NCBI GenBank assembly: GCA_964514855.1
Contig: CAZESZ010000001.1
Coordinates: forward strand, 1 to 38,786
DNA: 38,786 bases
Direction: 5' to 3'
Origin: an uncultured Candidatus Peribacteria bacterium
GTDB lineage: Bacteria > Patescibacteriota > Gracilibacteria > Peribacterales > Peribacteraceae
Both the position numbers and the translations under genes were made by a program. Every line of letters starts with the position of its first letter. The stretch's first letter is position 1. Under the pieces are notes generated by a model. That model was given only the letters and a program-made list of their open reading frames with translations, ran no database searches and was not told the DNA's origin. Shown piece after piece: positions 10,721 to 36,298 of the stretch.

Positions 10721-10756
10721 GCGAACATCGACGTGCGTTTACGACTGATCGAAGGG

Positions 10757-10808
10757 CTAGTAGCGAGTAGCAGATAGCAGGTAGTTGACTACTCGCTACT
10801 CGCTAGCC
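10757..10808. repeat. Inverted arrays of 7-nt-phased TAG / CTA units
   Basis: TAG at 10761, 10768, 10775 and 10782. CTA at 10789, 10796 and 10803. The arms can pair (GTAGCGAGTAG / CTACTCGCTAC). Overlaps the last codons (LASSE*) of gene 10789-11418. Confidence 0.8.
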
Positions 10809-11418
10809 GCTTTCCGCTTGTACACGCACAATCTTTACCCTCACATCCGCATGTGGCATGAATTTTCGGAAGATCAAGCTTGAAGCGTCCGTCTCGAAAA
10901 TCCACGATGGCGCCGCCGATTCTATGGAGCGCCTGGGGCGAGACGATGAGCGCGACATTCTTCACTGCCGGATGCGAAAATTCCAAGTCATCTGCGAATT
11001 TTATCTCCGCAAATTCCATGCAAAATCCACCCGTGTCGTCACTCCCGACTCGGAGGAGACAGCTGGTTTTTCCTTCGGTCTCCGCGATCGTGAGGAGTGC
11101 GTTCGCTCCGCTTTCTGTCAGCGTCAGCTCCTGCGGCGGGATGGGTGAGGATCGCAACAAATCTTCGATATCGGTTACCATATTCTGCACATCCGTATCT
11201 GTGAGTCCGTGCGACTTCGCGCCGATTTCCAACGAGTCGTGCGCATTGAACGCGCACTGAAAACAGTGGAGTCCGTACGCCGCCAGGATGTCCGCTGCGC
11301 CTGGGTGTAGTGCGATGATTTCCATGACATTCATCGTGGCGTCGACATCTGGTATCGCAGCCTTTTTCGCCACTTTTCCTCGTCGTCCGGCCTTTGTTGA
11401 TTGTCGTGTCTTCGGCAC
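10789..11418 (-). CDS. DUF1858-like redox-disulfide domain fused to a HesB/IscA-like Fe-S assembly domain
   Basis: ALHPGAADILAAYGLHCFQCAF..LEIGAKSHG (DUF1858-like), then LTLTESGANALL..LRVGSDDTGG (HesB-like) and a C-terminal Cys cluster CGCEGKDCAC. GTG 11418 is supported by a TAGAGT -10 6 nt upstream. ATG 11334 is the alternative start. Confidence 0.6.
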   Translation of the reverse strand: MPKTRQSTKAGRRGKVAKKAAIPDVDATMNVMEIIALHPGAADILAAYGLHCFQCAFNAHDSLEIGAKSHGLTDTDVQNMVTDIEDLLRSSPIPPQELTLTESGANALLTIAETEGKTSCLLRVGSDDTGGFCMEFAEIKFADDLEFSHPAVKNVALIVSPQALHRIGGAIVDFRDGRFKLDLPKIHATCGCEGKDCACTSGKRLASSE

Positions 11419-15016: not shown

Positions 15017-15104
15017 GTATTTTGTATGTAGTATGTGGTATTCAGTATTTCGTGTGTTCTTCGGTCTAGAATATACTGCATACTAGATACTCAATACTCG
15101 ATAC
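15017..15104. repeat. Inverted arrays of 7-nt-phased GTAT (x5-6) and ATAC (x5) units
   Basis: GTAT at 15017, 15024, 15031, 15038 and 15045 (GTGT at 15052). ATAC at 15073, 15080, 15087, 15094 and 15101. Lies between the rpmH stop and ATG 15113. Confidence 0.85.
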
Positions 15105-15112
15105 GAACTATT

Positions 15113-27560: not shown

Positions 27561-27566
27561 AGACGT

Positions 27567-27604
27567 GAGAAGTCACAAGCTAGAAGTCAGAAGTCACAAG
27601 TTTT
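27567..27604. repeat. 7-nt-phased AAGT/AAGC array (x5) in the sufS-sufU spacer
   Basis: AAG at 27570, 27577, 27584, 27591 and 27598: AAGTCAC AAGCTAG AAGTCAG AAGTCAC AAGTTTT. Confidence 0.8.
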
Positions 27605-32604: not shown

Positions 32605-32966
32605 TTACCTTCGAATACACGCCGTACCAAGTCGTCGTTCCACTCTTCAGCTTTCTGATGGTCGTGTATGCGTGGAATTTGGTCATGCGCCACAAGAAGA
32701 CGATTTGGGAAGGCGTCCTCTGGACGGTATTTTGGTCTGCGATCGCATACATTTCCTTCTTTCCCAGCAGTCTCCAGTATCTGAGTTCTATTACGGGCAT
32801 CAAGAAGAATGAAAATGCCGCGACGATCACGGCTATCGGCGTGCTGTTCTTCATCGTCTTCTACATGATCATTCGTTTGGAAGCACTGGAACAGCGACTG
32901 ACGAAGATGGTGCGAGAGAGAGCGCTGGCAGACGCTGGAGTAGAGGATAACAAGGTGAGGAAGTGA
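32601..32966 (+). CDS. DUF2304-like small membrane protein
   Basis: Start at ATG 32601 (ATGA overlap with the GT2 stop). Hydrophobic helices and a C-terminal amphipathic LEALEQRLTKMVRERAL. This family typically follows such GT2 genes (from memory). Confidence 0.55.
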   Translation: MITFEYTPYQVVVPLFSFLMVVYAWNLVMRHKKTIWEGVLWTVFWSAIAYISFFPSSLQYLSSITGIKKNENAATITAIGVLFFIVFYMIIRLEALEQRLTKMVRERALADAGVEDNKVRK

Positions 32967-32997
32967 GGAAGGTGAGGTGAGGTAAGGGAGGTAGGTG
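32952..32997 (+). repeat. Purine-rich GTGAGG/GGAGG-like array spanning the DUF2304 stop to the GT4 start
   Basis: AAGGTGAGGAAGTGAGGAAGGTGAGGTGAGGTAAGGGAGGTAGGTG. Irregular 5-9-nt spacing. Contains the only strong SD-like strings seen in the window. Confidence 0.6.
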
Positions 32998-33012: not shown

Positions 33013-34191
33013 ATGAAAACAATCCTCCTCATCAGCCCTTACTGGCAGGAAGAGCACCGATGGATGGTGAGTTCTGTGAAAATGGCGGAGTTGTGGCAAC
33101 GGCTTGGGTACAAAGTTGTGGTTCTGTGTATGGGAAGAACAGAAAAAAAGTCACAAGTCACAAGTCACAAGTTTTTTTCTGAAAAAATATCGGAGACACT
33201 TGAGATCCATCGAGTTCCCGATATTTTTCTTCCCGATCCGTGGAACTACGGCATTGCATGCGGGTTTTCCGGCATTGCACTTCGGCTCGCACGAGAACTG
33301 CGGCCGGACATTATCGTCGTCAACAAAGTCTTGTTCTGGAGCTCCATCGCGCTGCTTCGACTTCGGCTCGCTGGTTTCAAAGTTCTTCTGTTGACCGATG
33401 CGCTCGTCGGAATCACGTGGTGGCCGCGAGGAACGCTTGCGAAAGTCTGTGCTGCGATCTATGCGCATACACTCGGCTGGCTGATCCTCACAGCTGCGAC
33501 GAAGATCGTCTTTTTTCATCCGCAACCCGAAAAAATTCTCCGACGCCTCGGCATCGAAAAAAAATCCATCGTTCTTCCCACAGGTATCGATCCAGCTCGG
33601 TTTCCGTCTCTTCGTCCGGAGCATGCAGGTATTACGGCTACCTACGTCGGCCGTTTGGAGTCCGTGAAAGGTGCCGATGATTTCGTTGCCGCTGGGCTCA
33701 TGGTAAAAAAAGACAAACCAGAGCTCGAGATTCAGGTTGTCGGTTGGTACCCTTCGACCCATTCGACGAGCTCAGGGCAGGCAAGCTCAGGGCAGGCTCA
33801 TCATCCACTTGTTGCTGCGCATGACAGAGACGTGCGGTTCACAGGACTTCGAAAAGATATCGAGGATATTCTGTCTCGGTCCGATATCTTCGTGCTCCCA
33901 AGCTATGCCGAAGGCCTCAGCAATGCCCTCATGGAAGCCATGTCTGCGGGCTGTGCATGCATCGCGTCTGACGTCGGTGGTAACCGCTATCTCATTGAGA
34001 ACGGTGTCTCCGGGTTCCTCTTCCCGGCCGGCGATAGGGAGGCGCTCGCGGCGCATATTCGCCGCTTAGTCGAGGATCCGACGAAGCGCATGCAGCTTGG
34101 ACGAAACGCGCGTGCGAGAATCGAGCAGATGTTCAGTTGGGAAAAAATCGGCAAGCGATACGATGAACTCTTCTCGACCTGGAACGCATGA
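33013..34191 (+). CDS. GT4 (GT-B) glycosyltransferase carrying in-frame repeat inserts
   Basis: Start at ATG 33013 (GTG 32995 is the alternative). Signature EGLSNALMEAMSAGCACIASDVGG. In-frame inserts at 33140-33181 and 33769-33798. Several A/T homopolymers. Confidence 0.8.
   Translation: MKTILLISPYWQEEHRWMVSSVKMAELWQRLGYKVVVLCMGRTEKKSQVTSHKFFSEKISETLEIHRVPDIFLPDPWNYGIACGFSGIALRLARELRPDIIVVNKVLFWSSIALLRLRLAGFKVLLLTDALVGITWWPRGTLAKVCAAIYAHTLGWLILTAATKIVFFHPQPEKILRRLGIEKKSIVLPTGIDPARFPSLRPEHAGITATYVGRLESVKGADDFVAAGLMVKKDKPELEIQVVGWYPSTHSTSSGQASSGQAHHPLVAAHDRDVRFTGLRKDIEDILSRSDIFVLPSYAEGLSNALMEAMSAGCACIASDVGGNRYLIENGVSGFLFPAGDREALAAHIRRLVEDPTKRMQLGRNARARIEQMFSWEKIGKRYDELFSTWNA
33140..33181 (+). 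repeat. 42-nt module inside the GT4 CDS: 10-nt inverted termini flanking (GTCACAA)x3
   Basis: CAGAAAAAAA-(GTCACAA)3-G-TTTTTTTCTG. In frame, translated as EKKSQVTSHKFFSE. AAGT phased at 33148, 33155, 33162 and 33169. Confidence 0.85.
33769..33798 (+). repeat. Tandem 15-nt duplication in the GT4 CDS
   Basis: AGCTCAGGGCAGGCA AGCTCAGGGCAGGCT, translated as SSGQA SSGQA. Confidence 0.85.
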
Positions 34192-35294
34192 AGAAGCTCG
34201 TCATCCTCTCGGCTTTCCTCTCGCCGTATCGTTCGGGTGCTGAGGCGATGGTGGAAGAAGTATCTGTGCGGCTTGCAGACGAATTCGATATCACGATTAT
34301 AACGGCGCGGCTGCGGCGTGATCTTCCAGTGCATGATCGCCTCACCCCTGCCTGTCCGGCAGGCAGGCCCAGCCCCTCTCCCGACAGGAGAGGGGAGAAA
34401 TCACAGGTAAAAATCATTCGCGTCGGTGTCGGGCTGCCGTTCGATAAATGGCTCTATCCTTTCCTTGCGCCACTCACCGTACGTTCGCTGCGGCCAGATA
34501 TCGTTCACGCTGTGCTCGAGACATTCGCCGGACTCGCGCTCTTACTGTGTCGGAGTTCTGCGCGCACCATTCTCACGTTGCAGACGACCAACCGAACGTT
34601 TCTCAAAGGCATGATTGTGCGCTCTCCGCACGTCGTGACTGCCATCAGTGAGGATCTCGCGCGCATCGCGCGAAGTCTTGGGCGAACTGACGTCACGCTG
34701 ATACGGAATGGCATCGACCTCACCGGTATCAACGCTGCGTGCGAGAAAATACCGAAAGATTCCGGATGTGTACTCTTCGTCGGACGATTAGAACCGATGA
34801 AGGGGATCGATACACTTCTCCGGGCATTCGCGCAGGCGATCAAGGGCTTGGATCCTGCAGTACATTTGCGGATCGTCGGTCGTGGATCACAACTTCCAGC
34901 ACTCTCAGCACTGGCTCGTGATTTGGAAATAGATCACCGCGTCCGTTTCGTGGGATACGTTGCTGGTTCCAAGCTCTTTGACGAGTACGCAAAGGCCGAG
35001 ATCTTCGTCGGACTGTCTCGTTCGGAAGCACTTGGCAACGTTTTCCTGGAGGCGCAGTCAGCGGGCTGTGCAGTGCTTACGACTAGGGTCGGAGGTATTC
35101 CGGAAATCGTCCTCGATACCGAAACCGGACTCCTCGTTCCTCCGGACGATATCGACAGTGCAGCGACAGAACTGAGGCGGCTCCTGACGGACACATCTCT
35201 TCGCGCCTTGCTCGCAAACGCAGCGAAGAAGCATGCGCAGCAGTACGGTTGGGACGATATCGCAAGCCGCTACCGAAAAATCTACGCGTCATAA
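34188..35294 (+). CDS. GT4 (GT-B) glycosyltransferase carrying an in-frame twin-hairpin insert
   Basis: 368 aa. Signature EALGNVFLEAQSAGCAVLTTRVGGIPE. ATGA overlap with the upstream stop. GC-rich palindromes 34347-34395 are translated as TPACPAGRPSPSPDRRGE. Confidence 0.85.
   Translation: MKKLVILSAFLSPYRSGAEAMVEEVSVRLADEFDITIITARLRRDLPVHDRLTPACPAGRPSPSPDRRGEKSQVKIIRVGVGLPFDKWLYPFLAPLTVRSLRPDIVHAVLETFAGLALLLCRSSARTILTLQTTNRTFLKGMIVRSPHVVTAISEDLARIARSLGRTDVTLIRNGIDLTGINAACEKIPKDSGCVLFVGRLEPMKGIDTLLRAFAQAIKGLDPAVHLRIVGRGSQLPALSALARDLEIDHRVRFVGYVAGSKLFDEYAKAEIFVGLSRSEALGNVFLEAQSAGCAVLTTRVGGIPEIVLDTETGLLVPPDDIDSAATELRRLLTDTSLRALLANAAKKHAQQYGWDDIASRYRKIYAS
34347..34395 (+). repeat. Two adjacent perfect GC-rich hairpins inside the second GT4 CDS
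   Basis: CCTGCCTG-TCCGG-CAGGCAGG (34347-34367) and CCCCTCTCC-CGACA-GGAGAGGGG (34373-34395). The flanking protein sequence stays in frame. Confidence 0.85.
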
Positions 35295-36256: not shown

Positions 36257-36298
36257 AGAAGTGAAAAGTGGAAAGTTGAAAGTGAAAAGTAAAAACAG
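36257..36298. repeat. 7-nt-phased AAGT array (x5) in the thiolase / DUF35-kinase spacer
   Basis: AGAAGTG AAAAGTG GAAAGTT GAAAGTG AAAAGTA AAAACAG. AAGT at 36259, 36266, 36273, 36280 and 36287. Abuts the TTG start at 36256. Confidence 0.85.

Follow-up and report, generated by a model that had tools for sequence, protein, structure and literature searches.

If a glycosyltransferase gene has a 7-nt tandem repeat near its 5' end, does this make the gene a genetic switch in a bacterium that has never been cultured? The question is raised by a 42-nt module at positions 33140-33181 of a 38,786-nt stretch of DNA from an uncultured Candidatus Peribacteria bacterium (contig CAZESZ010000001.1); this whole stretch is called the window below. 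The module lies inside the gene of a GT4 glycosyltransferase (33013-34191), and the initial annotation of the DNA had described it as a palindrome-flanked heptanucleotide repeat that could be a contingency switch or a small repeat-derived insertion. We compared the module with orthologous genes, with the other repeats of the window and with the tandem repeats of related genomes. The comparison indicated that it is probably a short heptanucleotide microsatellite that has become fixed, in frame, in the coil joining strands beta2 and beta3 of the enzyme, one instance of a lineage-wide class of arrays with a 7-nt period, and not a switch.

The module and its host enzyme

The module at 33140-33181 was read as CAGAAAAAAA-(GTCACAA)x3-G-TTTTTTTCTG, which agreed with the initial annotation in sequence and coordinates, in the 42-nt length and in the perfect 10-nt inverted termini; the two arms are fully complementary, and 22 nt separate them. 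Tandem Repeats Finder (TRF) reported a perfect (AAGTCAC)x3.6 array with 100% matches at 33148-33172. The most plausible start of the host open reading frame (ORF) was the ATG at 33013 and its end was at 34191. Counted from this ATG, the module starts at nt 128 of the coding sequence, as expected from the claim of about 130 nt, and it starts at codon position 2. The peptide EKKSQVTSHKFFSE therefore maps to 33142-33183, which means that the loop peptide named in the initial annotation is encoded here, with a true span slightly offset from the coordinates of the module. The parts of the gene that are discussed in this and the next section are listed here.

33013-34191, plus strand: host gene, GT4 (GT-B fold) glycosyltransferase of 392 aa (P0001), identified by Pfam, AlphaFold2 model, Foldseek and homologues
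33140-33149, plus strand: left arm CAGAAAAAAA, which includes the 0-frame A_AAA_AAG; missing from orthologues L001, L006 and L013
33148-33172, plus strand: heptad array (AAGTCAC)x3.6, perfect by TRF; 25-nt core identical in L001 and L013, with diverged flanks
33172-33181, plus strand: right arm TTTTTTTCTG, window-specific in the orthologue comparison
33183-33228, plus strand: strong hairpin with 11-nt perfect arms and an inner stem, within the conserved coding sequence for KISETLEIHRVPDIF, directly 3' of the module
33748-33801, plus strand: second in-frame repeat insert of the host gene, PSTHSTSSGQASSGQAHH, after VVGWY, with a 15-nt tandem duplication at 33769-33797 and a predicted local distance difference test (pLDDT) score below 50 at residues 249-260

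Pfam analysis showed that the host protein contains Glyco_transf_4 and Glycos_transf_1 with scores over the cut-offs. The AlphaFold model had a pLDDT of 86 and a predicted template modelling (pTM) score of 0.87, and its top Foldseek matches were GT4 enzymes with a template modelling (TM) score of about 0.75; the solved GT4/GT-B structures matched include BshA, PglA, MshA and sucrose-phosphate synthase. More than 1300 homologues were found, and the nearest named ones were from Candidatus Peribacteria or Peribacteraceae, which places the organism in the candidate phyla radiation (CPR), as the initial annotation had guessed. According to Pfam, the gene cluster around the host encodes a PMT_2-like membrane protein, a GT2, a DUF2304 protein, a GT4 and a further GT4. 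The insert was modelled as a coil with no secondary structure between strands 34-40 and 55-60 (beta2/beta3), and the mean pLDDT of residues 41-50 was 61 versus 86 for the whole model. From this model, the insert is predicted to occupy a tolerant loop of the N-terminal Rossmann domain.

The consequences of slippage were calculated in silico. Gain or loss of one heptad unit, or of one base in the A7/T7 runs, cut the product to 56-126 aa, and the loss of the gene product that had been claimed for one-unit or one-base slippage was thus borne out at this level; a three-unit change in the heptad tract left the reading frame intact. The repeats were also compared with chance expectation in the 38.8-kb window. 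The heptad tract exceeded chance: its two-unit 14-mer with at most two mismatches occurred 4 times versus 0.22 expected. The single 7-mer AAGTCAC occurred 7 times versus 4.6 expected, which is no enrichment. The intergenic AAGTCAC array that had been placed near 27567-27604 does exist, at 27565-27604. Inverted repeats of 10 nt that are perfect and enclose a loop of 3-40 nt were found at 4 loci of the window (8 hits versus 1.9 expected), and two of these 4 loci adjoin each other in the GT4 gene at 33013-34191.

The adjoining inverted repeats raise the possibility that the module is a functional nucleic-acid structure: the hairpins at 33140-33181 and 33183-33228, together with A_AAA_AAG and the U7 run, would modulate translation or mRNA stability through pausing, frameshift attenuation or RNase, or the heptads would bind a protein. 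The two perfect repeats stand side by side here, and the hairpin at 33183-33228 is strong, with -18.9 kcal/mol and z = -6.75; it was in the top 1% of synonymous recodings and was the strongest among 78 orthologues (median -7.8 kcal/mol). A_AAA_AAG at 33144-33150, the dnaX-type -1 slippery heptamer, is in the 0 frame (codons GAA AAA AAG). However, both hairpins are window-specific and unconserved in the orthologues, and an Rfam scan of the window returned two tRNAs only and no RNA family at the module. With -5.9 kcal/mol and z = -1.67, the stem of the 42-nt module is a weak A:U helix (z-scores from -0.2 to -1.9 across tests), and 38% of synonymous recodings of the module peptide folded as well or better, so the 42-nt hairpin was rejected as a significant structure. 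A dnaX-like programmed -1 frameshift site was rejected too. The usual spacer before a -1 frameshift stimulator is about 5-9 nt, but the strong hairpin begins 33 nt downstream of A_AAA_AAG, and the -1 frame meets the stop codon TGA at 33180-33182 after 11 codons, which leaves only a fragment of about 56 aa. A functional nucleic-acid structure is therefore very unlikely, and the slippery heptamer and the U7 run are probably incidental. The U7 run (33172-33182 region) lies 4-5 nt ahead of the strong hairpin. This hairpin and the A7/T7 arms may be products of quasi-palindrome template-switch correction.

The insertion site in orthologous genes

The region around the module was extracted from 75 Peribacteria loci, 40 orthologues were aligned and 78 were examined as ORFs, and a neighbour-joining tree was built on conserved columns of the orthologues. 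The distance from LWQ to DPWNYG was a basal 132 nt in about half of the 75 orthologues and 162 nt in the window. The tree-nearest orthologues (L003, L007 and L014) were insert-free and had HGxKH-EKVS at the site. Since these nearest orthologues lack the module, the 42-nt region is an indel, as the initial annotation had suspected.

Arrays of the same kind were found at this site in other orthologues. L001 and L006 had (AGTCACA)x4.3 and (AGTCATAAGTCACA)x2.2 at the module site, and the more distant L013 had (AAGTCAC)x3 plus degenerate units. The A7/T7 termini were not present in any of these three array-bearing orthologues, so the palindromic ends are specific to the window. Other lineages had unrelated arrays at the module site (AAAGTGG, GAATGAA, GGACTTA, CGGATAT, GGGTAGC, GAAAATT and others, some of them with an 8-9 nt period), and the insert of L052 and L054 was a complete in-frame hairpin of inverted heptad arrays, with -43.6 kcal/mol in L052. 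Judged from the aligned genes, the loop carrying the module is an insertion hot spot in this GT4 family.

These results bear on whether the module could be a small mobile palindromic element, such as a Rickettsia palindromic element (RPE), a MITE (miniature inverted-repeat transposable element) or an element like a REPIN (a paired form of the repetitive extragenic palindromic sequence, REP), which inserted as a 42-nt unit and was tolerated in frame. Perfect 10-nt inverted termini would be expected of such an element, and the in-frame placement in a surface loop resembles that of Rickettsia RPEs. The AAGTCAC unit is common to the module and an intergenic array of the same genome, unit reuse is much higher within than between genomes, and intergenic arrays occur in REPIN-like inverted pairs. 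However, the termini are missing from the orthologues with the same array at the site (L001, L006 and L013), the units at the site differ from lineage to lineage, and the stem is only a weak A:U helix. Within the 38.8-kb window the complete module was found just once, and only its heptad unit recurs (27565-27604), and no target-site duplication was found at the borders by eye. A by-eye reading of the alignment also placed the left end of the array on the short AAGCAT (KH) of insert-free orthologues, a possible local seed. A mobile element is therefore unlikely. The comparison with RPEs in the initial annotation held in so far as the module is a repeat-derived in-frame insertion in a tolerant loop that orthologues lack; the mobile palindromic module was not supported as stated, with unconserved termini and no second copy seen. 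What the evidence supports is an array of microsatellite type, and not a palindromic element with defined ends.

The insert could also have been kept for its K/S/Q/T/H-rich loop peptide, by selection for enzyme function, localisation or partner binding. The peptide SHKSQV(T/I)SHK was present in at least five orthologues (P0001, P0003, P0007, P0026 and L013), and the nucleotide core is conserved. But the closest orthologues work without the peptide, other lineages have unrelated peptides at the site, and model confidence in the region is low. The conservation is at the level of the nucleotide repeat, with the unit read in all three frames, and we regard selection for the peptide as extremely improbable.

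Two further hot spots were found in the alignment of the GT4 family, one after PTGIDP and one after VVGWY. The second in-frame insert of the host gene, at 33748-33801, is at the latter site, and it resembles a frame-shifted GCTCAGGGCAGGC-type repeat, a kind that is common in environmental genomes. A shorter PSTSSGQA version of this insert was scattered patchily among distant orthologues. Six loci (L031, L044, L052, L057, L063 and L076) contain clear orthologues of the Peribacteria gene cluster and were deposited under other names, such as Kiritimatiellales, Parcubacteria group, Gracilibacteria, Paceibacterota and Patescibacteria group; these deviating labels probably reflect coarse or mistaken taxonomy of metagenome-assembled genomes.

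Seven-nucleotide arrays across Peribacteria

A census of tandem repeats was made with TRF on 1.31 Mb of Peribacteria DNA from 83 loci and compared with shuffled controls. The total was 887 arrays, and period 7 was the largest class at every score cut-off. The counts for three periods were as follows.

Period 7: 275 arrays observed, 26 in shuffles
Period 14: 58 arrays observed, 5 in shuffles
Period 21: 13 arrays observed, 0.7 in shuffles

Heptad arrays are the dominant tandem repeat of these genomes, and they recurrently occupy the same permissive enzyme loops. The 275 period-7 arrays had 173 distinct canonical units, so one preferred heptad motif or a protein-binding consensus was rejected. 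Pairs of arrays from the same locus (more than 300 nt apart) had an identical unit in 10.4% of cases versus 0.46% between loci. An inverted-complement partner within 110 nt was found for 75 of the 126 non-coding arrays (60%) versus 1 in the control. The resulting heptad hairpins have about 4-5 heptads per arm and often fill the stretch between one gene's stop codon and the start codon that follows; examples are L009 6145-6255 (-49.1 kcal/mol, z = -7.9), L020 6920-7022 and L052 8220-8295. It is speculative that such hairpins punctuate operons or couple translation.

When genes were called crudely, about 47% of the arrays were in spacers or gene edges, with spacers making up about 6% of the DNA, and about half were in ORFs. 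Strong in-ORF arrays numbered 44 in this GT4 gene and 65 in other genes. The other hosts confirmed by Pfam were a class-V aminotransferase (IscS-like), an undecaprenyl-diphosphate synthase (UppS), a nucleotidyltransferase and several GT4 paralogues. In the paralogues the arrays come early in the N-terminal domain, around residues 40-70, which we take to be the equivalent of the module loop. The loci had 0-10 arrays per 10 kb (median 2.4), and the density in the window was 1.55; loci without arrays mostly had the basal insert-free GT4. Density thus varies greatly between genomes (L018, L021, L023, L030, L037, L047, L049 and L077 versus L059, L003 and L013), and differences in repair genes or a mobilising enzyme are possible reasons.

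The same unit was also found far outside this lineage. The exact 22-mer (GTCACAA)3G was present in at least 120 metagenome contigs with a GC content of 0.30-0.72 and 3-14 copies of the unit, which means that GTCACAA has been amplified in many unrelated organisms. None of the (GTCACAA)3 metagenome matches listed was in this GT4 gene, and there were no alleles of the locus among them. Contigs with near-identical flanks beside a terminator-like hairpin had 3, 3 and 9 copies (L172/L175/L185) or 6 and 10 copies (L095/L110). The GTCACAA unit is thus length-polymorphic in nature when it is in non-coding DNA. Ten unrelated metagenome contigs (L093, L097, L099, L119, L126, L164, L181, L183, L203 and L204) had (GTCACAA)3-7 arrays with a common upstream flank, TGTGGATGACACCGTTACCGCGC..., which suggests a separate dispersed element ending in this heptad array.

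Could the module nevertheless be a contingency locus, in which slippage of the heptads or of A7/T7 would reversibly toggle the glycosyltransferase and so vary the surface glycan? Its 7-nt unit is not a multiple of 3, the tract is near the 5' end of a gene in an envelope-glycan cluster, and the protein is cut short by a one-unit or one-base change. The copy number varies between orthologues (3.4 units in the window versus 4.3 in L001 and L006), heptad tracts are found at the module position in many lineages, and among contigs whose flanks are nearly the same, such as L172/L175/L185, the copy number of GTCACAA goes from 3 up to 9 or 10. However, the tract is short (about 3.4-3.6 units, plus the A7/T7 runs) and below hypermutable length. 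The longer a simple sequence repeat (SSR) is, the more variable it is, with a steep and non-linear rise, and the variability of poly-A/T is about one tenth of that of poly-G/C (PMC3315296); A/T homopolymers of the size of A7/T7 are among the least variable SSRs (PMC3315296).

The orthologues did not look like alleles of a switch either. All 78 were full-length single ORFs, and in this between-species comparison none of the 45 array-bearing ones was out of frame (0/45). Frameshifted alleles would have been retrieved too, since the patterns used to detect orthologues are located downstream of the hot spot. Genome sequences of species with true contingency genes commonly show some of these genes OFF. 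The 45 orthologues hold 81 heptad-type arrays, mostly of 3-5 copies, and most of the arrays at the site are imperfect (27 of 81 perfect). In-frame arrays are also in the IscS-like, UppS and nucleotidyltransferase genes, in a sample biased to the envelope cluster. In addition, insert size follows the density of arrays in the remainder of the locus (Spearman 0.51 with p = 6e-6, Mann-Whitney p = 5e-5; no phylogenetic correction). The density correlation and the housekeeping hosts point to a genome-wide mutational or repeat pressure filtered for frame and fold, not to an evolved switch. Exact-protein look-ups of the GT4 and two neighbour proteins matched no other contig. With a short tract, no array-bearing orthologue out of frame, housekeeping hosts and the density correlation, the claim of a contingency switch was not borne out; we consider it highly improbable, and most likely the module is not a genetic on/off switch.

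Besides the module, the window carries the following repeats.

10751-10813, strand not assigned: intergenic heptad hairpin of inverted TAGCNNN arrays, z = -3.0 and -3.7 for the two strands
15017-15111, plus strand: intergenic heptad hairpin of GTATNNN units paired with NNNATAC, by TRF, z = -3.7
27565-27604, plus strand: intergenic array of AAGTCAC/AAGTCAG units (27565-27600 reads GTGAG AAGTCAC AAGCTAG AAGTCAG AAGTCAC AAG), flanked by the stop codon of the IscS-like gene and the start codon of NifU, which are both minus-strand genes
32952-32997, plus strand: purine-rich array of GGTGAGG-like units with a period of about 8 nt, directly upstream of the GT4 start codon
34347-34395, plus strand: in-frame insert of 16-18 codons, window-specific by alignment and made up of two GC-rich hairpins, -36.2 kcal/mol, z = -3.9
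36259-36295, plus strand: intergenic heptad array (AAGTGAA)x5.3, by TRF

The arrays at 27565-27604, 36259-36295 and 32952-32997 are single-arm and abut start codons; the first two are pyrimidine-rich on the coding strand, with no obvious Shine-Dalgarno sequence. The insert at 34347-34395 (TPACPAGRPSPSPDRR..) belongs to the GT4 gene next door (34188-35294), where it follows a conserved ITARL segment and so has the N-terminal position that corresponds to that of the module. A PSPDGRGE-type peptide, as in this insert, is also seen in other orthologues of the first GT4, at hot spot 2.

Origin of the arrays and relation to known repeats

A fixed microsatellite could have arisen in the following way. 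The arrays would be born and turned over by replication slippage with a 7-nt step, possibly together with ectopic copying of the genome's own units. In genes, only products with a total length that is a multiple of three would survive, and survival would be limited to loops where extra disordered hydrophilic peptide is harmless. The A7/T7 inverted termini would be a window-specific elaboration, made by quasi-palindrome template-switch correction or by chance, and not the ends of a transposable element. The net effect of the insert on the enzyme is about 10 extra loop residues.

Several observations weigh against this account. The window, L001 and L013 have one and the same 25-nt heptad core, although the flanking coding DNA has only about 71% column identity; simple neutral decay does not predict an identical core, so it takes ongoing homogenisation, a re-expansion that was recent or independent, copying from elsewhere among the arrays, or selection. 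The AAGTCAC insert is also patchily distributed within a shallow clade of the tree, which requires repeated loss, repeated gain or recombination. Slippage homogenisation, re-expansion, ectopic copying or recombination could each explain the identical core and the patchiness. The reuse of units within genomes means that purely local de novo slippage is insufficient as the whole account. Finally, the sampled loci all surround one glycosyltransferase gene, which biases the census towards envelope-synthesis genes, and the in-ORF and intergenic counts come from a greedy longest-ORF gene set and are approximate.

Unit reuse within genomes and REPIN-like pairing leave room for some copying mechanism. 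We tentatively consider a possible but less probable alternative to passive fixation, in which Peribacteria carry an active lineage-wide repeat system: genome-specific heptads would be copied to many loci, stop-to-start hairpins would punctuate operons, and disordered loops would be seeded as a by-product. The hairpins might then have roles such as translational coupling, termination or mRNA stabilisation, and the GT4 module would be a footprint of mobilisation resembling that of REPINs and REP-associated tyrosine transposases (RAYTs), or of template switching, not of passive slippage.

As for the fixed microsatellite, the known repeats that come closest to it are heptanucleotide long SSRs from free-living bacteria. 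In many bacteria no class of long SSRs is more abundant than the heptanucleotides, for which an origin by polymerase slippage has been proposed (Mrazek et al. 2007, as far as it is summarised in PMC4679880 and PMC4692102). Known examples mentioned in the same two summaries are the short tandemly repeated repetitive (STRR) sequences of cyanobacteria, GGGAATC or GGGGAYT in Xanthomonas/Nostoc and TAACTGA in Beggiatoaceae (Mrazek et al. 2007 in PMC4679880, PMC4692102). The module and its class have at least three head-to-tail units, an excess of period 7 and genome-favoured units. They share with the known SSRs tandem 7-nt units in 2 to about 10 copies that are strongly over-represented relative to other periods, an apparent enrichment in spacers and near starts, occasional inverted pairs, and variation in length and sequence between close relatives. 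However, Peribacteria use many units and the known systems one or a few; a large share of the Peribacteria arrays are in frame in conserved enzymes, in recurrent loops; the paired-array hairpin from stop to start is their main intergenic form; and the lineage is a small-genome class of the CPR.

The SSR contingency loci of Haemophilus, Neisseria and Campylobacter resemble the module in that a glycosyltransferase ORF has a non-triplet repeat near its 5' end and is shifted out of frame by a one-unit change. Their tracts are long, perfect, polymorphic in populations, often OFF, and in surface or host-interaction genes, whereas the Peribacteria tract is short and in frame in all 45 array-bearing orthologues, and its class is also in housekeeping genes.

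RPEs are roughly 100-150 bp long and dispersed, with a conserved family consensus. Like the module, these elements, reportedly described by Ogata and colleagues in 2000, are repeat-derived DNA in frame in coding genes, in surface-exposed segments compatible with the fold. The Peribacteria insert, in contrast, is a 25-nt microsatellite with unconserved flanks and with units that differ between lineages at one site. The tandem repeats of Borgs (PMC9879509) are similar in being fast-evolving and independently arising, in adding disordered protein segments and in being also intergenic. Borgs are archaeal extrachromosomal elements, and the Peribacteria hosts are bacterial chromosomes. The module is thus like RPEs and Borg repeats in outcome (new loop or disordered segments) but unlike them in sequence organisation. 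For Borg repeats, the in-gene unit lengths are said to be multiples of three; the Peribacteria unit has 7 nt, so the frame is held only through the length of the insert as a whole.

Relatives of the module in intergenic DNA share with REPs, bacterial interspersed mosaic elements (BIMEs) and REPINs the inverted pairs, the hairpins between operon genes and the genome-specific sequences. REPs, however, are defined palindromes of 20-40 nt mobilised by RAYT transposases, and the arms in Peribacteria are arrays of short heptads.

In the literature, we found no report of heptad or SSR repeats for Peribacteria or CPR; the repeats mentioned in the Peribacteria genome paper are origin-proximal short repeats and one long direct repeat only. 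Recurrent in-frame colonisation of enzyme loops by heptads in a CPR lineage thus appears to be undescribed. Our analysis means that, in uncultured CPR bacteria, phase variation should not be called just because a glycosyltransferase gene has a non-triplet repeat near its 5' end; here the switch-like signature probably comes from a genome-wide mutational or repeat process filtered to in-frame products. The roughly 100 in-frame heptad arrays, at recurrent sites and with units that differ between lineages, provide a natural experiment on the birth of loops from repeats. In CPR genomes, heptad inserts inflate variation in protein length and can lead astray the alignment and annotation of genes as well as phylogenetic markers based on indels, and the abundant intergenic type of hairpin may organise operon expression in these reduced genomes.

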